A stretch of DNA of 64,000 nucleotides from a virus, in IMG/VR virus record IMGVR_UViG_3300020048_000029, positions 1-64,000 of that record; one strand, written 5' to 3'. A model generated the notes under the pieces. That model ran no database searches, had not been told where the DNA came from, and worked only from the letters and a program-made list of their open reading frames with translations. How positions within the stretch are numbered: position 1 is the stretch's first letter; every line of letters starts with the position of its first letter. A program made the position numbers and the translations under genes. Shown in pieces: positions 3,571 to 13,951 of the stretch.

Positions 3571-3791
3571 TGACAGCAAAAGAAGTTTCAGAAGGAATAA
3601 TTTCCGGAGAAATTACAGGTACTGCCGAAGCCATCTATCTTGCTCATCACAATGCCTATGTCAAAATATTAAAGACATGTGAAGAGCTATCCAAAGCTCT
3701 TGATCAAGCTAGAGAGCAGCTTAATGACACAGCGATAAGATGTGAAACTGCACTCGACATAGCAACGGCGGTACAAAATGAAAAGAATTGA
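3570..3791 (+). CDS. Small coiled-coil hypothetical protein
   Basis: TAATG coupling to upstream gene; heptad-like helix. Confidence 0.6.
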   Translation: MTAKEVSEGIISGEITGTAEAIYLAHHNAYVKILKTCEELSKALDQAREQLNDTAIRCETALDIATAVQNEKN

Positions 3792-4458
3792 TGTAAAACA
3801 AGAGCACAAACATTACATGCCTGAGCTTTTGAACTCTATCCAAGATGTTGCAAGTGAGAATCTTAAACGCGCTTTGTCTGGAATTGCAAATGGCAGAGGC
3901 TGTATTTTAAACGGCTTTAAAATATTTCAAGGTGGCGGTCAGTATTCTATAGAGCCAGGCGTTGCAGTGTCTCCTTCAGGGGAGCTTTTAATACTTGAAA
4001 CTTCCATAAATGTAAATGGAATCTTCCCAGTAGATCAGTCTGCCTACATATCATACAAAAAAACTCTCGATCCTACTACCATTGTTGACATGATAGACGG
4101 AACAAGCTCTGAATACATAGAGACCGGAACGAGTGTAGAAGTTCGGTACGGAGTAGCTGCTCAGCCGGGAGAAGTTTGTATCGGAACTCCTGGAGAGCAA
4201 ATGTCAGGACTTCTTGACGACAGAAATATAAAAGCTGCTAATATTTACGCTGAATCAGTAACTGCAGGAAACTTGTCAGTTACAGGTCTTTCTGATTTTG
4301 CAAAAGTTACGTCTACAAGTGCAAGTATATCATCTTTGGAAGTTGCCAAAGTTAAGGTTAGCAGCGCAGAATACCCGCTGAAAACTGAGTCTTTTTCTAT
4401 AATAGCAAACGGTGTATCACAAGTGTTAACTTTCAAGGGCGGAATGCTCGTTCAATAA
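3778..4458 (+). CDS. Probable tail/baseplate-associated protein
   Basis: GCILNGFKI...YSIEPGVAVSPSGELLIL resembles N-termini of phage tail/baseplate proteins. Confidence 0.5.
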   Translation: MKRIDVKQEHKHYMPELLNSIQDVASENLKRALSGIANGRGCILNGFKIFQGGGQYSIEPGVAVSPSGELLILETSINVNGIFPVDQSAYISYKKTLDPTTIVDMIDGTSSEYIETGTSVEVRYGVAAQPGEVCIGTPGEQMSGLLDDRNIKAANIYAESVTAGNLSVTGLSDFAKVTSTSASISSLEVAKVKVSSAEYPLKTESFSIIANGVSQVLTFKGGMLVQ

Positions 4459-4469
4459 AAGGAGAAATC

Positions 4470-5114
4470 ATGTTTCTTATCAGGGGTAAATACCCGATCG
4501 ATACAATTGAGCAAGTAAAGCTTGCCTCAGAATACTTTGAAAACTACCTTTCAAGCTTTTCTCCTTCTGAAAAGATGTTGTCTGCAGCTCGCCTTGAAAA
4601 GCGTGCGGGAGAGCTTGGAACAACTCTTGTTGACAAAGCTTGGATTGTAACTTATTCACGCCCTCTTCTTAAAGAGGCGTCAGAATCTCCTGCTCTTTCG
4701 ACGCACATGAAAATGCGTAAGCTTGCTCTCGATTGCCACGGAGTTACAGAAGTTGAAGTTGACGGCAAAACTGTAAACGCTCTTGAGCTTATGAACAAGA
4801 TCGCTTCATCTGATGAAACAGTTTTTGAAAAGGTTCAAGGTCTTATCGCATTTGATAAGCTTGCTGGTTTAGACAACTCTTACAGCGACAGCTTGCCTGA
4901 CCCTGTAATGACCATTGCTGGATCTGCAATTAACCCGTGGTATGACGGCGTTAAAATGGCTGGAGACCTTACTCAGTACGACCTTAAAAAACTTGCCTGT
5001 GACAAAGATTTTACCGAGAAACTTGCAAGTGAAAATTTTGCCACTGATCCATGCGGTACTGTATATTCAATGAGTCCAGTAGAAAAGGAAAACTTTCTTA
5101 GACTCGTGGAGTAG
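4470..5114 (+). CDS. Hypothetical head-region protein (KYPIDT motif, repeated K[LI]A)
   Basis: RBS AAGGAG; lies just upstream of the portal-like gene. Confidence 0.55.
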   Translation: MFLIRGKYPIDTIEQVKLASEYFENYLSSFSPSEKMLSAARLEKRAGELGTTLVDKAWIVTYSRPLLKEASESPALSTHMKMRKLALDCHGVTEVEVDGKTVNALELMNKIASSDETVFEKVQGLIAFDKLAGLDNSYSDSLPDPVMTIAGSAINPWYDGVKMAGDLTQYDLKKLACDKDFTEKLASENFATDPCGTVYSMSPVEKENFLRLVE

Positions 5115-5116
5115 AC

Positions 5117-5836
5117 ATGAAAAATCTTTCTGAAGAACTTATGCTTGCCGTTTTGAATGATGATAAAAAAGAAGCGGCAAGGATTAAGTCACTCGTAGAA
5201 GCAAGGCACGCTTCTGAAATCAAAAAAAAGCCTGTTGTCATATCGAACCCCTTCCCAACTGAAGTAATGCCGGCAAGACTTGTTATTGGTGTCATGGAGA
5301 ACCTGTTTGGAGAAGACTGGTTCGATCTCGATCAAGACACTATCTGGGAGCTCTTTGCAAGACGCGGAATAACACCTCCGACTTCGAATGTTAAAGACTG
5401 CATACTCGCAGCAAAAGCTTGTCACCATTCAATATCTCCTTGGCAAGACTGGTTTGACTTTTCAAACGTATGCCTCGCATTTTGCGGAGCCATGGCAGAG
5501 CTTGAAATTCTCAGAACTCCTACAATCGCCATGATCATAAGCGGTATTAACACAATGCTCCTGATCAGACCTGATGAATTGATCTCAAAGGATGTTGAGA
5601 ACTTCATCGAGGCCAAGCTTCTCGAAGAAGGAATTTACACACCTCCACCATCTCTTCTTGGTGTAGTCGATCTTGACACAGTTGTAAGACACAACTGGAT
5701 GGACATTTACAAAGCATACAACAAAATAGCAGCCGGCGCATTACTTCACAATGACGACGTTGTATCTATTCAGGCGAATCGTCTGTATAGAATTGAGCAC
5801 GCCGCAAAAGAATTTTATGGAATGGAAGGCTACTAA
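5117..5836 (+). CDS. Hypothetical protein (239 aa)
   Basis: Tightly packed, TAATG-coupled to the next gene. Confidence 0.65.
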   Translation: MKNLSEELMLAVLNDDKKEAARIKSLVEARHASEIKKKPVVISNPFPTEVMPARLVIGVMENLFGEDWFDLDQDTIWELFARRGITPPTSNVKDCILAAKACHHSISPWQDWFDFSNVCLAFCGAMAELEILRTPTIAMIISGINTMLLIRPDELISKDVENFIEAKLLEEGIYTPPPSLLGVVDLDTVVRHNWMDIYKAYNKIAAGALLHNDDVVSIQANRLYRIEHAAKEFYGMEGY

Positions 5837-7944
5837 TGAGCGATACCTGGCAGGCAATTTCTGGAAATTTAAACGGGTCTACTCAGGGTCCTACTCAAGC
5901 TGTAATTCCTTCTGGTGGCGGAGCTCCTGCTGCCAAAAGGAATATTACACAGAGCCCTTACACATACCCAAATCCGGCATACGACATGACGAACACGTTT
6001 ATGCCAAAATCTCTCAAAGAAGTTTTGAAATACGTTGCTGAAGTGGCTTACACCGATCCACTCGTTTCACAAGCTGTTGTCAAGCTGGCCGAATATCCGG
6101 TGACAGACATGCTTTACGATCACAAGAATGGCGGATCAGAGTTCAAGAACGATGAGTTAATCGCTAAGTGGCGCTACATCATGGAAGATTGTATCGACAT
6201 CAGAAGCTCAATGATCCAGTCAGGGATGGACTACCATGGGTTTGGGAATAGCGTAACTTCGGTCCACTTCCCTTTCATAAGAATGCTCAAGTGTAGCAAA
6301 TGTGGAGAGATCCACTCAGCAGATTTGAAAGGTGTTTCGTTCAGAGCATGGGAGTTTCACTCCACATGTCCAAAATGTGGGTACAAAGGAGTGTTCTCAG
6401 CCCAGGACTATCTTGAAAGAAATTTCAAGAAAATCAGAGTGATTCACTGGGACCTTACTCAGCTTGATATCAAGTTCAACAGTATTTCCGGCGATCACTT
6501 CTATTATTACACAGTTCCTTCGCACATCAAGAGTGCGATCGACAGTGGTGACATGGACTTTGTAAAGACTACACGTCTTGAGGTGATCAAGGCTTGCAAG
6601 AGCGGAGCAAAGGTAAAGCTTCTCCCTGAGAACACATTCCACATGAAGAGACAGTCACCGCAGTACATTTTCCCATCGGAAAGAGGCTGGGGTGTATCAA
6701 CTGTTTTCTCTGTTATGAAAGATGTGTTTCACAACAGAATACTAAAAAAAGGAAACGAGATGATCGCTCTTGATCATATCGTTCCACTGCGTATCATAAC
6801 ACCGCAGCCTATGGGCGACATGTCTCCGCACCTTACAATGGATCTGAGTGGCTGGAGAGCAGCTCTCGACAGAGAAATTGGAGCATGGAGAAGAGATGGT
6901 AACCATATCATGTATGCTCCGATCCCGGTCGAAATTGCAAACATGGGTGGAGACGCAAGAGCCCTTATGGTTACTCCAGAGATCAAGGCTAACGAAGAGA
7001 ATATCATCGTTGGTATGGGTATCATCCCTGAGATCTTGAAAGGTGGAGCATCGTGGTCTGGGTCGAGTGTTTCATTGAGAATTATCGAGAACAGTCACTT
7101 GAATCATAGAAGATCTCTTCTTGAGCAGGTGAAGTTTGTGAGAAACTCAATCGCGAACACCTACAACATCCAGAAGGTCGAAATAACAATGACAGACTTC
7201 AAGATGGCTGACGATTCGACTCAGAAGCAGATCTTGCTCAGCGCTTGTCAAGGAAGCCCTACAACAGCTCTTATTTCTAAGAAAACTGTTATCAAAGAGC
7301 TTGGACTTGATCCAGAAGTTGAGTTCAACAATAAACAAGAAGAGCTCCGCAGAAGTATCGAACTCCTTACTCATGAGAAAAAAGGCTTTGCTCATGCTGA
7401 TGGAGAAGCGTCTATTATCAATGCGATCTTCAGCGCCGATGCTCAGTCTGAAAACAACAACCGCATTAAAATGCGTGAGAGAGAAGCTATTGGAGAACAG
7501 AACAAGGCTGACATGGCTCAGAAAGACCAAGAGTCTAATGCTGTTTATGAAGAGTTCTCTGCGCTTGCGAAGAATATTGGAATCGATCCATCAACAGTTG
7601 ATATGTCGAATATCATCTCGAGAATTACAGAGAGACTCCAGCTTATTCAAACAAATGACGGAAACTTGTTTGCCCAGGTTATGCTTAGAATAAAAGGGTC
7701 TTACCCTAATGTCTATGCAGTTGTTTACAATAACTTCAAAGAGATGAACTCTATCAAGGCCGACACAATGCCAGATCTTGCAACAGTTCAGAAGTATACC
7801 CCGGGTGAGATCCCGACCTATAGTCAGGGCGGGTCCACAGGAGATGGTTCAGCAGACCCAATCGAACAGGCTCAGCAGCCTGTAAAGATTAATGCACCAG
7901 CTCCTGTGTCAAACCCACCAAGAAGAGCCGGCGCAGATATGTAA
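5836..7944 (+). CDS. Putative portal protein with CxxC...CxxC insertion
   Basis: 702 aa; PLVSQAVVKLAEYPV, DYHGFGNS, FHMKR...GWGVS, GIIPEIL segments resemble portal proteins; Gln/Pro-rich C-terminal tail. Confidence 0.6.
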   Translation: MSDTWQAISGNLNGSTQGPTQAVIPSGGGAPAAKRNITQSPYTYPNPAYDMTNTFMPKSLKEVLKYVAEVAYTDPLVSQAVVKLAEYPVTDMLYDHKNGGSEFKNDELIAKWRYIMEDCIDIRSSMIQSGMDYHGFGNSVTSVHFPFIRMLKCSKCGEIHSADLKGVSFRAWEFHSTCPKCGYKGVFSAQDYLERNFKKIRVIHWDLTQLDIKFNSISGDHFYYYTVPSHIKSAIDSGDMDFVKTTRLEVIKACKSGAKVKLLPENTFHMKRQSPQYIFPSERGWGVSTVFSVMKDVFHNRILKKGNEMIALDHIVPLRIITPQPMGDMSPHLTMDLSGWRAALDREIGAWRRDGNHIMYAPIPVEIANMGGDARALMVTPEIKANEENIIVGMGIIPEILKGGASWSGSSVSLRIIENSHLNHRRSLLEQVKFVRNSIANTYNIQKVEITMTDFKMADDSTQKQILLSACQGSPTTALISKKTVIKELGLDPEVEFNNKQEELRRSIELLTHEKKGFAHADGEASIINAIFSADAQSENNNRIKMREREAIGEQNKADMAQKDQESNAVYEEFSALAKNIGIDPSTVDMSNIISRITERLQLIQTNDGNLFAQVMLRIKGSYPNVYAVVYNNFKEMNSIKADTMPDLATVQKYTPGEIPTYSQGGSTGDGSADPIEQAQQPVKINAPAPVSNPPRRAGADM

Positions 7945-7977
7945 AAAAATGGACCGGAGAAATCCGGTCCTTCTTTT
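7944..7977. terminator. Bidirectional intrinsic terminator
   Basis: A7-T-GGACCGGA-GAAA-TCCGGTCC-TTCTTTT at the convergent junction. Confidence 0.8.
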
Positions 7978-7981
7978 AGCT

Positions 7982-8015
7982 AAAAAAATGACACCCCTAA
8001 CTAGAGGTGTCATTT
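7982..8015 (-). terminator. Second hairpin terminator for the minus-strand block
   Basis: A-run then AAATGACACC-loop-GGTGTCATTT. Confidence 0.65.
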
Positions 8016-8016
8016 G

Positions 8017-8205
8017 TCATTTTATCAAGATTAGACTATCGAGAAATTCGAATTCAAATTCGAATACAAGTGACAGCTGCATGACTTCATCAACAGCTTC
8101 AAAAGCATTGTCGCCGGATAAATTCATCCCGTCAATGTCAAGTGAGAACTTCTCAGCTATCTTCTCTAATTCAGAGCATAAACTCTTCGCCTTCTTCTCC
8201 GGCAT
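8017..8205 (-). CDS. Small hypothetical protein
   Basis: MPEKKAKSLCSELEKIAE...; ATG preceded by GAGG. Confidence 0.5.
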   Translation of the reverse strand: MPEKKAKSLCSELEKIAEKFSLDIDGMNLSGDNAFEAVDEVMQLSLVFEFEFEFLDSLILIK

Positions 8206-8338
8206 TGTAATCCTCTTCCTCAAAGCACTCGCCACATATTACTAGCGCACTACTACTCTCAACTTCAACTTCTTCTCCGCACACAGAGCAGTAAGCGATA
8301 ATTGTATCCATTTTCTCTTCGTCATCGAACCCGATCAT
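8171..8338 (-). CDS. Small acidic Zn-ribbon protein
   Basis: CSVC...CGEC; ATG preceded by AGGGG. Confidence 0.55.
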   Translation of the reverse strand: MIGFDDEEKMDTIIAYCSVCGEEVEVESSSALVICGECFEEEDYNAGEEGEEFML

Positions 8339-8405
8339 AACATCCCCTGGATTGTGTTGCCGACAGAATATAACTGTTGACAACACATCCTACAAGATAT
8401 TACGA

Positions 8406-9404
8406 TTACTCTTCTTCGCCGTCTTCTTCTTCTTCATCGTCCTCTTCATCAAAGAACAAATCATTGTCATGAAGGTCAGAGCCATCAGGATCGTAAGCCT
8501 TCGCCTCATCTTGGTCTTCGTTCCCTTTGATCATGCCAATTGCATGGATCATCTTGGAAGCGGTTTCACCAGCGATGATTTTTTTGTTGCCATCAACAGT
8601 AACACCGTTGAGCTTGGTGAAGAATTTCCACTTGCCGCCAGGCTTGTAGTGTTCACTCCATCCAGCAGTATCAACGATTTCGTCAATTGTCATGTCGCGC
8701 TCAATCGTAAATTGACGGGTCGTAGACCCAGGAGTGTTGAAGTACACCACCGTGGACTGCAAGTTACCTGCAATTTTGTCGCAAACATACACTGATTCAC
8801 CTTCAGCAATTTCAGGAACCTCATACGCATTTGCGTATGTAACCCCGCGGTACCGATATGAATGATGTTCATGCCCGACACCTTTTGCATCCATAGCTGA
8901 CTTGACAGTACGAGATTCGCAAACAACGCTTTCAGGCTCAGACCCAATGAACACGAGTTTTACTTCGATGCTTTTATGCACAGCCGTATTATGAGCAGCC
9001 GCAGTCGCAGCCGCAGCACGCTTGACCTTCGTAGAAACTTCGTAGTCAAAGTCATTGTCAATTTCATCATCCAGGTTAACAATTCCGCCGTTACACAAGA
9101 TGTTATTTGCTTCGGTGTCGATACCAAGGAACTCAGCAGCATCGAAGAACGAGATAGAACACTCGTCATCATAAAGCATAGTGTGGTCGCCAATACACAC
9201 TTGGGAAAGGCTGTCAGCATCGCGAATGTCGTAGTCTGCACTTTTGTCGATCTCGGTAGTTGTTTTACACGCAATACCGCTTTCGCGAGATACAAGAACA
9301 ACATCGCGACCGAGGAACTGCACTACTTGACCTGCAGTTGTGAACACTGAAAAATTACCTGATACTTCGAAGCCGTTTGAAAAAATACGCATTTTGTTCT
9401 CCAC
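8406..9404 (-). CDS. Tandem multi-ubiquitin-like (beta-grasp) precursor with acidic tail
   Basis: Repeating units of about 65-80 aa with NG..V and termini KVKRA / KIAGN / MIKGN; directly downstream of E1 and JAB; likely start ATG about 9392. Confidence 0.7.
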   Translation of the reverse strand: MENKMRIFSNGFEVSGNFSVFTTAGQVVQFLGRDVVLVSRESGIACKTTTEIDKSADYDIRDADSLSQVCIGDHTMLYDDECSISFFDAAEFLGIDTEANNILCNGGIVNLDDEIDNDFDYEVSTKVKRAAAATAAAHNTAVHKSIEVKLVFIGSEPESVVCESRTVKSAMDAKGVGHEHHSYRYRGVTYANAYEVPEIAEGESVYVCDKIAGNLQSTVVYFNTPGSTTRQFTIERDMTIDEIVDTAGWSEHYKPGGKWKFFTKLNGVTVDGNKKIIAGETASKMIHAIGMIKGNEDQDEAKAYDPDGSDLHDNDLFFDEEDDEEEEDGEEE

Positions 9405-10189
9405 TAAATTAGATTGAAAGTTCTTGTAGTTTGTGATTCAGCTGGATTCTCCCAGTCTGTAATCACAAATTCGTCTGAATACATGAACACATGCATTTCA
9501 TTCCACATTTTTCTGGCGTTAGAAATTGTGTAATTACTCATGAATTGCATCATGTACTGCACCCATCGGCTTGCACCGATTGCTGCAATTCTCATTGCAG
9601 TTGTGATGGCAGTCTGACTTCCACCGCAGGCGGTTTCGGTTTCAATGTCATCATCCGAGAATAGTGTCTTCTCCCATATAGCAACTTGCTTCTGGTCACA
9701 AGGGTTGAAGGCGTGTATCAAGCCACTCTTCAGTCCCATTCTCGTTTCTACGACCAATTGAACCGCAGGGTTGTATTTGAGAAATTTCTCAAACAACTCT
9801 TTCCGGCTCGACATGGTATCAGTCATAAGGAACACAACCTCTGAGGCAACCAAGCCTTTCGGGGTGTCACTTGTAACCATTTGCGGGTAAGAGTTAATCC
9901 TGAAACCCATCTTCTTCTCAATGAGATCGTTTAGGGCGTCAGCCTTGTTCGATCCAATCTGATCAAGGAAGAAAATCTGGTTTGGCAGATTATGCTCTTC
10001 AATGATGTCGCCATCAAATACTTTTAGAACTCCTCCGAACTCCGGGTCTCCAAAGCCATGTTGAGCAAGCTGCATTGCTACAGATGCGCCGGTTGCTCCG
10101 GCGCCTATAACTGTTGCAGAATGCCCATGGTAGTTGGCAGGGTTCAGAAGGTTCAGTTGTCTTGAATAATTCATTAAACCTCCATTCAA
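9404..10189 (-). CDS. E1-like ThiF/MoeB family adenylyltransferase
   Basis: YSRQ, VIGAGATG, DGDIIEEHNLPNQ, GSNKADAL; candidate catalytic Cys in TACGG. Confidence 0.9.
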   Translation of the reverse strand: MNGGLMNYSRQLNLLNPANYHGHSATVIGAGATGASVAMQLAQHGFGDPEFGGVLKVFDGDIIEEHNLPNQIFFLDQIGSNKADALNDLIEKKMGFRINSYPQMVTSDTPKGLVASEVVFLMTDTMSSRKELFEKFLKYNPAVQLVVETRMGLKSGLIHAFNPCDQKQVAIWEKTLFSDDDIETETACGGSQTAITTAMRIAAIGASRWVQYMMQFMSNYTISNARKMWNEMHVFMYSDEFVITDWENPAESQTTRTFNLI

Positions 10190-10200
10190 TATTGTTGTTC

Positions 10201-11160
10201 CTAAAACAGCTCTCGAATAACATCTGCAATCTCACAAATCAGCTTTGCAGAGTATCTTTCTTGAACGCCTTTGCTTTCGCTAAACACGGCCATGAAATCT
10301 TCGTTGAAAATCGAGAACTCGTCATTGAAATTCTCTTCGAACTGAACATTGGAATCAAATAGAGAGCCAGAATAACCCTCATCAAACGGGAAGTCTATCT
10401 CGACTTTACTAGGAAGCAGAGGCGCACTGAATGGCACCTCATACGGCTTCTTGTCCGGCTGGTTAGCGTCAACAGCTGCTTGCATCTCTTTTGACATGTC
10501 AATCGAAAGATTTGTAGTAAATGACCCGACCAACTCTTTAATTTCTTCTACGGTTACGCAGCATGCGACAGTAGTTTTTAGGCACTCAAGTTCTTCCTTC
10601 GTGCCAAGTGTTCCTTTAATTGTATAGGGCAGATTGTCCCAACGAATCATATTAACACTATCCAGAACTGTAAGACCGATCAATCCTGCCTTGTTGAAAA
10701 TACCACGGATAAATAGTCCGCGGTCAGATCTTGTTGCAAGCGTGGTTATTGTTTCCTCATCCTGACTACTTGGTCCAACACCCATCGTATGATGAGAGTG
10801 ACCCCAGAATCTCATTTTGGAAATACCTTCCGGTGATCCGGTCATTTCAAAAAGCTTGTCAACTGCAAGCATCTCATCGAATTCACACGTGCCTCCGTTG
10901 GCAACATGATTCTTCACATAGATGCAATCACTAACAAAGAGTCCTTCATTGGTCTCATTGACCAATGCGTACCACCCTGCTTCGATCGAGTTGTACTTGA
11001 CAATAAACTTCATTCTTTCAAGTGCTTCCATGTCAAAGATAATCTTCGGCGCGGAACTGACGTCTCCAAGAACAAACTTTTTCTTGGAGTTGTTGAGATT
11101 AATCTCGCTCTTTACAATATTACTCATGCGTCTGGGAACTCCAGCAAACAGGCGCCCCAT
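10201..11160 (-). CDS. JAB/MPN+ (JAMM) metalloprotease, deubiquitinase-like
   Basis: N-terminal EAGW glutamate plus WGHSHHTMGVGPSSQD = HxH-x7-S-x2-D. Confidence 0.85.
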   Translation of the reverse strand: MGRLFAGVPRRMSNIVKSEINLNNSKKKFVLGDVSSAPKIIFDMEALERMKFIVKYNSIEAGWYALVNETNEGLFVSDCIYVKNHVANGGTCEFDEMLAVDKLFEMTGSPEGISKMRFWGHSHHTMGVGPSSQDEETITTLATRSDRGLFIRGIFNKAGLIGLTVLDSVNMIRWDNLPYTIKGTLGTKEELECLKTTVACCVTVEEIKELVGSFTTNLSIDMSKEMQAAVDANQPDKKPYEVPFSAPLLPSKVEIDFPFDEGYSGSLFDSNVQFEENFNDEFSIFNEDFMAVFSESKGVQERYSAKLICEIADVIRELF

Positions 11161-11900
11161 GCGTCTGCCATGTTAGGGTTTTTGATACATTCAAGCACGT
11201 CATGTGCAACTGTATCGAAATCGTATGTTTTAAGAGAAATTGTCACCTGGCCTGAAAGATTCCCAAGGCAAACAACCCCGCTAGAAGTTACATGTGGAGC
11301 GTAGAACCCTGCCACATTCATAGACCCTTTTACTGAAATCGCTCTCGTCGCATCGGGCGCAGATCTGAGAGATTCGAGCTTTGTAAGGTTAACCTCAATC
11401 TCAAGATCTCCGATCAGCTTCCCTTGAACTACAAGGTCTTTTTCTGAGTGGATCTTAATTACAACGTCACCAATTGAAGTTGTGTACCCATTGTAGTCAG
11501 CTGCACTGTTAATACAAGCGTCAATGTCAAGGCTGCCTCCGAACATCGATTCTATTTCGTTTCCAACGGTTACAAGCTCTCTGTTGAGCTGATCACGTCT
11601 TCTACGAAGAGAGATTAGCGACGACTCTGCGATCGCAGCAGACTTGTACACAAGAGATCCAATAAGAGCTTTTAAGTGGCTCTTACCAACTTCTTCAACG
11701 TCAGGCTCATTCTGAGTAGGTAAAGCAGCGCCATACTCATTCCCATTAACGTGAAGTCCACTTACACAGGCGTGGAACAGGTTTGCGTACTCTGGATCAA
11801 GCTTCAATTCAATTCTGACTCCTGGCGTGTAGTCAAGAATTTCAACACCGTCCAGCGTCATTACGTCGTCCGATACCGGTCCGTTTACAATGTAAACCAT
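11124..11900 (-). CDS. E2/UBC-like conjugating enzyme (paralog 2)
   Basis: APHVTSSGVVCLGN resembles the UBC HPN...G.ICL active site; preceded by a coiled coil. Confidence 0.7.
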   Translation of the reverse strand: MVYIVNGPVSDDVMTLDGVEILDYTPGVRIELKLDPEYANLFHACVSGLHVNGNEYGAALPTQNEPDVEEVGKSHLKALIGSLVYKSAAIAESSLISLRRRRDQLNRELVTVGNEIESMFGGSLDIDACINSAADYNGYTTSIGDVVIKIHSEKDLVVQGKLIGDLEIEVNLTKLESLRSAPDATRAISVKGSMNVAGFYAPHVTSSGVVCLGNLSGQVTISLKTYDFDTVAHDVLECIKNPNMADAWGACLLEFPDA

Positions 11901-13951
11901 TATCTTCCTCTTTTAATAAAGTTACCAATTGCATTCATTACTTCTTCTCCATTATGCAAAGCCATGTGGCTATCTGCGTTGATACAGTCAAGTTCAACTT
12001 CGATTTTCTTTTGCATATCATCCAAGCTTATCTCAGGCCAATTCTTCACCGTTTTCCCTAGAACGTCAGCCATATTAACTGTTTCAAGGAATGAGATAAC
12101 TATGTTGGAAATCACTGAGACATTACCTTCTTTACAAGCAGGACTAAGGGAGTTTTTCATTGTACCTTGACAAGGTCTTCCATCACTGAACACATGGGGA
12201 GCACTCTTACCTTCAATCTTCCTTGTGAGGTTCAAATACTGCACTGAGTCTGGCTTGTCAATCTCAATTGTGATCTTGAATTTGCCGAGCTCATGCCATT
12301 TAAACGTCTCATAATTCTGAACAAAAAGCGTTCTTGTGTATATCGACAGACTCTTCCCAGAAAGGTGGATGTAAAGCACTCTCTTGTCAGATGTCATGTC
12401 TTCAAACCACATGTCAACCATTTCCTTGTGACCGTTAAGCTCAGCATCAGGATTGAAAGATCTTTTGATCATTTCAGCCTGTCTCAACTTATCAGTTTCA
12501 ATGGCGATCTGCCGATTCAAAGATTCGAGATTTGCAAGAGATGTTGAAACATCTAATTCAATCTTTCTCTTTGTATCATGCACAGACTTTGTCATTGAAA
12601 TGTGCATATCCTCAGATGTCTTTTCCACCGATGACTTGAACAGCATTCTGTTGTACTCAATGGCAGATTCAACACCTTCAAGAAGAAGCTTTCCAACAAG
12701 AGTTATTACCTTGTCAGTATCTCCGCCGAACACCTCGATCTTTTTACTGTCAATAATCATTATTATTGCACCAGTTACAAGATCGCAGTAATGGGCTCTC
12801 CCTCCTGTTACAAGAGGACATGAACACAAAGTTCCAAGTGCATGGATATTCTGTACACCTGCATAGGATTTTTCAATGTAAACAAATTTATGAGTATCTG
12901 TGTAAGTGTCAACTCTTCCTATTGATAAATTAATACCAATGTCGTCAGCTATTGCTTCCAGATACTTTTCAATTTCGTCTTCAACATTGCTGATGTAAAC
13001 GATATTACCTTTTGGCGTAATCGCATACTTTGGATCAACTGACACATACCCATCTTCGCTAATACCTCTTACAGCGTTAACCCTTACAGACGCTGCTCCA
13101 GCCGGGCTTGTAGTGAACTCGCTTATTTCAATTCCAAGACCGGTCACAAACTTATCACCAGACTTGGTGAGAGCAGTACTGGTATTGTTAAGGAAGTAAT
13201 TAATCTTGTTCACATACTCAATAGCTGTGTCAGGAGTTCCGATCCCGAAAAGGTTTGACGGAATAAGAGTTATGTCGTTTCCGAAGTTATGCACAGAGTC
13301 CGGGTAAACAGTTGTAATCCCTCCGTCAATTTCAGCTTTTTTACCAAAGTACACGTCCATTGTATCAAGATCGATATGAACATATTCACCAAGCCTTACA
13401 AGCTTAGTTCCTCTGTCATTGGAGTAACTACACCTTATAGGCATTATCATTTCAACAACGGGAGGAGCGCTGGTATCAATGGTGAATAAGTTCGGGTTTA
13501 CTGTTTTGTACAATCTGTTTCCGTTGGCGAAGTAGAACTCTCCTTCGGAAGATTCTACGATATTCCCAGTGTAAACCCTTGTCATCATGCCGTGGATTTG
13601 CGTAGGAAACTCTTCCGGTTCCGGTTCCGGCTCCTGTTCAGGTTCCGGCTCTGGAGCAGCTACAACCTCTCCTATTACAAAGTCAAGAGCTCCTTCCCGC
13701 AACTCTGGAAGTGCCTCAACCTCGTCGGCAGTGAAAGCATCGTAAATGTTCTCATCGTGCTTCCCAGCATAGAAAACACCATACCCAGACATCCCGATTT
13801 TATTTGGGACTCGGTGTTCTAGGAGAGAGTTGATAACCATCTTGTTAGTTGTCCAGTAGACGGCTCCAAGCTCGAATACTCCAAACTCGCTCACATTAGT
13901 AATCTCGGCTATGTTAAGCCTTTCTGTAACAGTACGGGTCATGCAAATCAT
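11900..13951 (-). CDS. Large protein with C-terminal E2/UBC-like domain (paralog 1)
   Basis: APHVFSDGRPCQGT...NMADVLG matches the neighbour's APHV..G..C.G..NMADAWG; PEPEPE linker; coiled coil. Confidence 0.65.
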   Translation of the reverse strand: MICMTRTVTERLNIAEITNVSEFGVFELGAVYWTTNKMVINSLLEHRVPNKIGMSGYGVFYAGKHDENIYDAFTADEVEALPELREGALDFVIGEVVAAPEPEPEQEPEPEPEEFPTQIHGMMTRVYTGNIVESSEGEFYFANGNRLYKTVNPNLFTIDTSAPPVVEMIMPIRCSYSNDRGTKLVRLGEYVHIDLDTMDVYFGKKAEIDGGITTVYPDSVHNFGNDITLIPSNLFGIGTPDTAIEYVNKINYFLNNTSTALTKSGDKFVTGLGIEISEFTTSPAGAASVRVNAVRGISEDGYVSVDPKYAITPKGNIVYISNVEDEIEKYLEAIADDIGINLSIGRVDTYTDTHKFVYIEKSYAGVQNIHALGTLCSCPLVTGGRAHYCDLVTGAIIMIIDSKKIEVFGGDTDKVITLVGKLLLEGVESAIEYNRMLFKSSVEKTSEDMHISMTKSVHDTKRKIELDVSTSLANLESLNRQIAIETDKLRQAEMIKRSFNPDAELNGHKEMVDMWFEDMTSDKRVLYIHLSGKSLSIYTRTLFVQNYETFKWHELGKFKITIEIDKPDSVQYLNLTRKIEGKSAPHVFSDGRPCQGTMKNSLSPACKEGNVSVISNIVISFLETVNMADVLGKTVKNWPEISLDDMQKKIEVELDCINADSHMALHNGEEVMNAIGNFIKRGR
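13612..13652 (+). repeat. Hexamer tandem repeats encoding a (PE)n linker
   Basis: TCCGGT/TCCGGC/TCAGGT units encoding PEPEPEQEPEPEPEE on the minus strand. Confidence 0.7.

Follow-up and report, generated by a model that had tools for sequence, protein, structure and literature searches.

A phage operon with a conserved multi-domain ubiquitin-like protein, a probable precursor of ubiquitin-like tags with two processing sites

We analyzed a 64,000-nucleotide stretch of a viral genome (IMG/VR record IMGVR_UViG_3300020048_000029, positions 1 to 64,000; hereafter the window) for a multi-domain ubiquitin-like (Ubl) protein encoded at 8406–9392 on the minus strand, as the last large gene of a minus-strand operon. 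The protein carries two Gly-Asn dipeptides, one between its last two domains and one before an acidic tail. Comparison with its relatives indicates that this feature is real and conserved, and the most plausible reading is that the operon serves conjugation and that the protein is a precursor from which ubiquitin-like tags are cut at two sites. We give a probability of roughly 55% to this reading, in which the phage carries a ubiquitin-like conjugation system of its own and the gene supplies the precursor of its modifiers. An earlier note, made from the sequence of the window, had described the protein as polyubiquitin-like, with a JAB protease releasing two different modifiers from it; its observation was confirmed as a whole and its interpretation was supported in part.

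The open reading frame (ORF) at 8406–9404 has 332 residues counted from a GTG at 9404. The true start is probably the ATG at 9392 (ORF residue 5, four codons further in), giving a precursor of 328 residues, because a GGAG is found 7 nucleotides upstream of it and the nearest homolog, with 96% identity (P0002), begins at that Met. The GGAG sits immediately after the stop codon of the preceding gene, and the stop codon of the precursor gene itself occupies 8406–8408. Residue numbers below are those of the ORF, and all features of the precursor are on the minus strand. Unit 1 (residues 5–66; 9207–9392) is a ThiS-like beta-grasp candidate without a Gly-Asn end, and unit 2 (residues 67–130; 9015–9206) a ThiS/MoaD-like beta-grasp candidate that ends with KVKRA, without a Gly. 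An Ala-rich linker (residues 131–145; 8970–9014) leads to unit 3, or domain D1 (residues 146–214; 8763–8969), a predicted beta-grasp domain with the tail K-I-A-G-N. The last two residues of this tail, Gly213-Asn214 (8763–8768), are the candidate internal processing site. Unit 4, or domain D2 (residues 215–295; 8520–8762), is a predicted beta-grasp domain with an inserted short helix and the tail M-I-K-G-N, in which Gly294-Asn295 (8520–8525) is the candidate C-terminal processing site. The remaining 37 residues (296–332; 8409–8519) form an acidic tail, a presumed propeptide, with 11 Asp and 11 Glu (22 of 37 residues, 59%), and are not conserved in homologs. Both motifs, the end of unit 2 at Ala130 followed by the Ala-rich linker, and the highly acidic tail were located where the earlier note had placed them.

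Close relatives of the precursor were few. An exhaustive HMMER search of 1.8 billion representatives and word-indexed protein searches gave four relatives altogether, and a metagenome scan gave one more (locus L008). Searching 50,697 phage records with the Ubl by tblastn gave no match, and a pattern scan based on the long-family alignment likewise found nothing in viral contigs. All five close relatives were found in the same operon arrangement, on phage-like contigs: the gene order is kept in L001, L004, L006 and L008, and the JAB-E1-Ubl part in L003, whose contig stops there. Searching viral contigs with the E1 alignment recovered 52 loci. In about half of these, the gene after the E1 encodes a small beta-grasp protein ending with K-G-N, and in loci with the order Ubl-E1-JAB the upstream Ubl likewise ends with KGN. 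The Ubl proteins have three architectures: (i) single units of 67–76 residues; (ii) two different domains in 155–178 residues, with KGN at about residue 68 and at the end (L009–L017, L069, L072, L073, L075); and (iii) the same unit repeated head-to-tail, two times in L020 and L034, three times in L033, and two times in L065, where both copies end with KVKGG.

The Gly-Asn dipeptides stand out among these proteins. G213, N214, G294 and N295 are invariant in the long homologs and belong to the few invariant columns at 22–29% identity to the window protein, a conservation that, on the alignments, is far beyond chance. Both the internal and the terminal Gly-Asn are kept in 18 of 18 GN-type proteins with the two-domain module (6 long and 12 two-domain homologs). 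The conservation of KxGN in homologs, which the earlier note had proposed as a check, was thus strongly positive at both sites. When the motif changes, it does so in step: both sites are Ala-Ala in L018 and L019 and both are Gly-Gly in L065, and none of the 24 multi-unit proteins has an internal motif discordant with the terminal one. Such matching motifs suggest that a single machinery reads all the sites.

Two further patterns in the family point toward processing. Between repeats 2 and 3 of L033, 30 of 204 nucleotides differ but only one residue, with 28 synonymous versus 1 non-synonymous codon changes. Eukaryotic polyubiquitin genes have the same pattern of synonymous divergence, which would follow if all units were released as one and the same protein. 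The stretch past the last Gly-Asn, on the other hand, varies freely, with 0, 1–4, 15–22 or 22–37 residues across the family. P0005, found on two independent contigs, has nothing past it, and many relatives also stop exactly there; P0003, P0004 and L008 continue with 22–36 mostly basic residues, and P0002 and the window protein with 33–37 acidic ones. In this comparison, the acidic tail behaves like a disposable propeptide, and a dipeptide that never changes, with a tail behind it that is free to vary, is the sequence signature of a processing site. Cuts of this kind by JAB proteins have been described in bacteria: BilC takes the last residue off BilA (G97|A98, PMC10557695), and in BubCD the JAB domain splits a fusion of Ubl and E2 just past G229 (PMC11601596).

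The predicted structure is in agreement with two tethered domains. AlphaFold2 modeling of residues 140–300, using a 16-sequence alignment (A4), reached a predicted local distance difference test (pLDDT) score of 85.6 and gave two beta-beta-alpha-beta-beta-beta domains, with strands and helices at 146–209 and 218–290. The boundaries agree with the 146–214 and 215–295 of the earlier note, whose suggested AlphaFold domain parsing was here carried out on units 3 and 4. The pLDDT dropped below 50 solely at 212–214 (A-G-N) and at 295–300, which makes the stretch with the internal Gly-Asn the one disordered linker of the model. The predicted template modeling (TM) score of the two-domain model was 0.51, a low value that fits two beads on a flexible string. 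The top solved Foldseek matches were linear di-ubiquitin (E 1.9e-8), Naegleria polyubiquitin, ISG15 and FAT10, and hhalign against a profile of the phage single-unit Ubls gave probabilities of 90% for unit 3 and 96% for unit 4. Units 3 and 4 are therefore confidently modeled as tandem ubiquitin-like beta-grasp domains.

Of the four beta-grasp units proposed in the earlier note, units 3 and 4 are borne out by AlphaFold2 and Foldseek, and the evidence for units 1 and 2 is weaker, coming from the ESM Atlas model of the window protein. There, unit 1 superposes on ThiS clusters with TM-scores of 0.57–0.66, and unit 2 matches a 66-residue MoaD/ThiS cluster with a TM-score of 0.71 by target. Against the phage single-unit Ubl profile, hhalign had no signal for either unit (probability at most 1.4%). 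A single-sequence AlphaFold run on the whole protein gave no usable fold (pLDDT 35). Searches of the window Ubl in Pfam, PADLOC and NCBIfam had no match, and PHROGs returned one weak match, of unknown function. Because units 3 and 4 share homology with the two-domain proteins in alignment A4 and match the single-unit profile, the window protein is, by this alignment, the conserved two-domain module extended by ~145 N-terminal residues and by the tail. An S-G-N in unit 1 (residues 15–17; 9354–9362) is also conserved in all six long homologs, including P0003, P0004, P0005 and L008. We considered it as a third processing site and dropped it, as the unit alignment has a G-T/S turn at the same place; it probably forms the turn between strand 2 and helix 1 of unit 1, with the Asn as helix cap.

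The genes upstream of the precursor supply the putative partners, all on the minus strand. At 9404–10189 there is a ThiF-type E1 consisting of the adenylation domain only (Pfam ThiF, 4.7e-13), with an invariant cysteine in the motif T-A-C-G-x-S-Q-T. A profile built from five E1 homologs matched MccB, Uba1, UBA6, PaaA, ThiF and Cap2 in the PDB, with MccB as the top solved match, only ~1 bit above Uba1. Next comes a JAB/JAMM protein (10201–11160), with an invariant Glu, H-S-H, Ser and Asp (E60, H121, H123, S131 and D134; alignment A6). Its profile reached Rpn11 in the PDB at 2.9e-8, and Prok-JAB was reached by 6 of 11 homologs. With this motif and its Rpn11/JAMM1 similarity, the protein is predicted to be a JAMM/MPN+ metalloprotease. 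Two E2-like genes follow, one for a protein of 258 residues with the motif A-P-H-V-x5-C-L-G (11124–11900; alignment A7), the second E2-like protein of the operon, and one for a protein of 683 residues (11900–13951) that has an E2-like domain at its C-terminus, preceded by ~450 residues without an assigned role. The His, Cys and Gly of the E2-like domains are invariant (alignment A7), and solved E2s were reached only at E 0.18 or worse. A JAB and two E2-like genes, answering to the JAB and two E2s that the earlier note had mentioned, are thus present in the operon by profiles and alignments, together with an E1, and the Ubl gene is associated with predicted E1, E2 and peptidase genes.

Several details of the partner genes in other loci deserve mention. 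In L020 (4837–5983), and in the same way in L021, the JAB gene is split inside the H-x-H: the first ORF ends with LWGH and the next begins with SHISGGVGPSGQD ~250 nucleotides on, which could be due to an intron, another insertion or a frameshift. In four loci where the JAB gene follows the E1 (L052, 6669–7568; L050, 6657–7409; L041, 6627–7406; L042, 6668–7570), the C-termini of the JAB proteins resemble conjugation ends, with tails such as LTGGNS, YEGGY, and MGN plus 12 basic residues. Relatives of the E1 with 28–34% identity are encoded by two cultured phages, Xanthomonas phage PhiXhv-15 (PV764602.1, 84889–85572) and Flavobacterium phage FpV4 (KT876724.1, 63878–64564). Both are annotated as thiamine biosynthesis proteins, a probably misleading annotation, and in neither phage was an obvious KGN Ubl found directly after the E1.

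The number of E2-like genes varies with the type of Ubl. Using an E2-domain profile, we detected two adjacent E2-like genes in all 16 loci having a Ubl with two different domains. Loci with a single or homo-repeat Ubl mostly had one, with L026, L028, L034, L042 and L043 as exceptions. In L026, a single-Ubl locus, the second E2-like gene (3757–5118) lacks the catalytic Cys (APHVELSGYPVAG), and its product may be an inactive, UEV-like partner. The earlier note's idea of two modifiers for two E2s draws support from the constant presence of two E2-like genes beside two-different-domain Ubls, and is weakened by the two-E2 loci forming one clade.

Taken as a two-site precursor, the protein would be processed and used as follows. 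The JAB protein would remove the non-conserved acidic tail at Gly294-Asn295 and would also cut the exposed linker at Gly213-Asn214. Two different modifiers would be released, one of units 1–3 (~210 residues) and one of unit 4 (~80 residues). The E1 would then adenylate the new C-termini and hand the modifiers to the two E2-like proteins, which would conjugate them to phage or host targets.

Several points weigh against this reading. The case for cleavage into free modifiers is a comparative one, and for the multi-beta-grasp Ubls of Bil and Bub (Ubl2/Ubl3), the published description is of proteins that stay whole (PMC11601603). With no Gly-Asn at the end of units 1 and 2, the protein does not consist simply of releasable units in a row and would give at most two modifiers. 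The Ala-Ala pair of L018 and L019 belongs to one clade and is essentially one evolutionary event, and the link between two E2-like genes and two domains, likewise confined to one clade, may go back to a single event. The E2 assignment, built on a motif and on sub-threshold profile matches, is a well-motivated lead. Taken alone, the Ubl and JAB of the window fall below every Pfam, NCBIfam and PADLOC threshold.

The most serious alternative concerns the end of the mature modifier, which the earlier note had placed at the Gly. Here the cut would be made after the Asn, or would not be needed in the proteins ending with Gly-Asn, and the reactive residue would be the Asn. Release could be by the JAB or by Asn cyclization, and activation could go through a succinimide, as for MccB and microcin C7. 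We regard this as possible, if less probable than the two-site reading as stated above. In about half of the relatives, Gly-Asn is the very end of the protein, and the Asn position accepts only N, G or A, with at least a dozen different residues at the position after it. In the GG-type relatives, the L043 protein ends with RGG, that of L038 with KGG plus R, and that of L065 with KGG plus Q or K. These ends align the Asn with the last Gly of ubiquitin, which would make K-G-N equivalent to the R-G-G of ubiquitin. In left-handed backbone conformations, no residue replaces Gly better than Asn. The tails of units 3 and 4 are flexible in the model and nevertheless end with Gly-Asn, with GG variants in relatives L038, L043 and L065. 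The fixed Asn is also unlike the situation in BilA homologs, in which residues past the conserved Gly are absent or variable (10.1101/2023.09.04.556158). MccB is also the best-scoring solved relative of the E1 profile, though by only ~1 bit over Uba1.

Against an Asn end, the only experimental precedent for a bacterial JAB with its Ubl is a cut after Gly, with the loss of one cap residue (PMC10557695). The spacing in the model counts weakly in the same direction: the Gly is reached four residues past the last strand, as it is in ubiquitin, and the Asn five. Furthermore, a C-terminal Asn adenylate cyclizes readily, which is established MccB chemistry and would compete with thioester formation; this cyclization can be taken either as an argument against the Asn end or as a hint of unusual chemistry. 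Two other comparisons did not discriminate: repeat-length bookkeeping in L020, L033, L034 and L065 was neutral between a cut before and after the Asn, and the presence of a JAB had no link with the motif type, a JAB being present even beside the L043 Ubl with its free RGG. The cut after Gly is therefore questionable, with the Bil precedent and, weakly, the strand spacing in its favor, and the many Gly-Asn ends and the constrained Asn position against it. From the sequence comparisons, a mature C-terminal Asn is at least as likely as a C-terminal Gly, and we slightly favor a cut behind the Asn. The full scheme, with mature tags that come from polyprotein precursors and end in Gly-Asn, an E1 that activates the C-terminal Asn, maybe via a succinimide as in microcin C7, and two tags with two dedicated E2-like enzymes, is more doubtful.

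A second alternative keeps the modifier whole: only the tail would be removed, and the four domains would work together as a single modifier, in the manner of ISG15, FAT10 or the bacterial Ubl2/Ubl3; the internal Gly-Asn would be conserved for some other role, for instance in a hinge or in a secondary contact with E1 or E2. ISG15 and FAT10 are among the fold matches, multi-domain Ubls are documented as intact in Bil and Bub (PMC11601603), and units 1 and 2, having no motif, are clearly not released singly. We consider it unlikely, though. The internal motif is the same as the terminal one in every GN-type two-domain protein, and the two change together where they change (AA/AA in L018 and L019, GG/GG in L065). 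In ISG15 and FAT10, the di-Gly is gone from the N-terminal domain. Near-identical repeats kept under strong purifying selection are also hard to explain if the last unit alone is functional.

It is very improbable that the operon performs no protein conjugation, the Ubl being a ThiS/MoaD-type sulfur carrier or an assembly chaperone of the lambda tail assembly protein I type and the E1 acting only as an adenylase: some relatives do score near or marginally above the Pfam ThiS threshold (29.9 bits for L033 and 27.9 for L020, with a cut-off of 22.5), related E1s in cultured phages have the thiamine annotation, and Ubl and JAB proteins have been described in phage tail assembly (Iyer et al. 2006, PMC1779556), but the operon has conserved a pair of E2-like genes whose His and Cys are invariant, no ThiG, ThiH, MoaE or desulfurase genes were seen in the neighborhood, the window protein has no Pfam match and ends units 3 and 4 with Gly-Asn instead of Gly-Gly, and the neighboring genes are E2-like, JAB, helicase and portal genes, of replication and portal type and not tail genes.

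Among the known systems, the presumed two-site precursor and its operon share with type II Bil (BilA/BilC; Chambers et al., PMC10557695) the combination of Ubl, E1, E2 and JAB, and a JAB that in Bil trims a cap as short as one residue. Bil is a bacterial defense, whereas the window system is phage-borne, with a near-invariant Asn after the Gly, four domains, an internal site and two E2-like genes. PADLOC found no Bil model match in the operon; only the E1 matched, and only CBASS-type E1-E2 models. The proteins of the window stayed below the thresholds of the Bil, CBASS, PRTRC and ThiS models. The predicted internal cut resembles that in BubAB by the BubCD JAB (Ye et al., PMC11601596), as both fall just past the conserved end of a beta-grasp domain in a polyprotein; the Bub cut sets free a functional Ubl. 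In Bub, the part downstream of the cut is an E2, and the E1 and E2 lack catalytic cysteines; in the window, it is a Ubl, and both cysteines are invariant.

Tandem Ubls beside E1-, E2- and JAB-like genes have been called reminiscent of polyubiquitin before (Iyer, Burroughs and Aravind 2006, PMC1779556), and in the Ubls of Bil and Bub the number of beta-grasp domains ranges from one to three and the N-terminal domains vary (Gong et al., PMC11601603). The prokaryotic tandem-Ubl operons (the 2006 set, the PRTRC cassette, Ubl2/Ubl3) are similar in having two or three tandem beta-grasps beside E1, E2 and JAB genes. They differ in being bacterial or plasmid-encoded, with Ubls that are intact where studied, while the window system is from a phage, with Gly-Asn and an internal site. 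Assignment to PRTRC, or operon type 6d, found no support: the window E1 scored 42.1 bits against PRTRC_ThiF (TIGR03736; cut-off 144.75), and the JAB, E2s and Ubl had no PRTRC match. With MccB and MccA of microcin C7, the likeness is an E1-like enzyme that adenylates a C-terminal Asn, relevant only if the Asn is the mature end. MccA is a heptapeptide, its system has no E2 or JAB, and the similarity between MccB and the E1 is limited to the nucleotide-binding region.

Eukaryotic polyubiquitin and ubiquitin-fusion precursors (UBI4, UBB, UBC) are alike in having directly joined units, each with its own tail, and a capped last unit, and the modeled fold matches linear di-ubiquitin. The likeness is strongest in relatives such as L033, with identical units and synonymous divergence. 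The window protein departs from it: its four units are different instead of copies of one unit, the motif stands at the ends of units 3 and 4 instead of at every junction, it is Gly-Asn instead of Gly-Gly, and the presumed protease is a JAMM protein encoded next door. The polyubiquitin analogy of the earlier note therefore suits the identical-repeat relatives (L033, L020, L034 and L065) and suits the window protein less. In the literature searched, we found no description of such phage-encoded cassettes, of the Gly-Asn hallmark or of the internal processing site.

In the window, a portal-like gene ending at 7944 converges on the Ubl operon, and an SNF2 helicase and nucleases are encoded upstream. 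Two terminator-like hairpins, one readable on both strands, were found between the convergent genes, at 7951–8015, and small minus-strand ORFs (8017–8386) separate them from the Ubl gene. In related phages, a run of small genes between the Ubl and portal genes was seen in L003 (3445–6099) and L004 (9798–13870), with precomputed Pfam matches to Tad6, Tad2-like (weak) and N_methyl, and may be an anti-defense cluster beside the Ubl operon.

Bacterial ubiquitin-like conjugation has so far been studied as an anti-phage defense (CBASS, Bil, Bub). Here, what appears to be a complete conjugation kit belongs to a phage, and related E1-JAB cassettes, many with a neighboring Ubl, are present in more than 50 viral contigs. 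The modifier has its own distinctive features: a near-invariant Gly-Asn in place of Gly-Gly, a second, internal copy of it, and polyubiquitin-like relatives. If the internal site is cut, prokaryotic viruses would make ubiquitin-like tags in the manner of a polyprotein; if the Asn stays in place, ideas on how the E1 chemically activates the phage Gly-Asn Ubls would have to be revised. Either outcome would help in looking for what a phage-encoded tagging system targets, be it virion proteins or host defenses.

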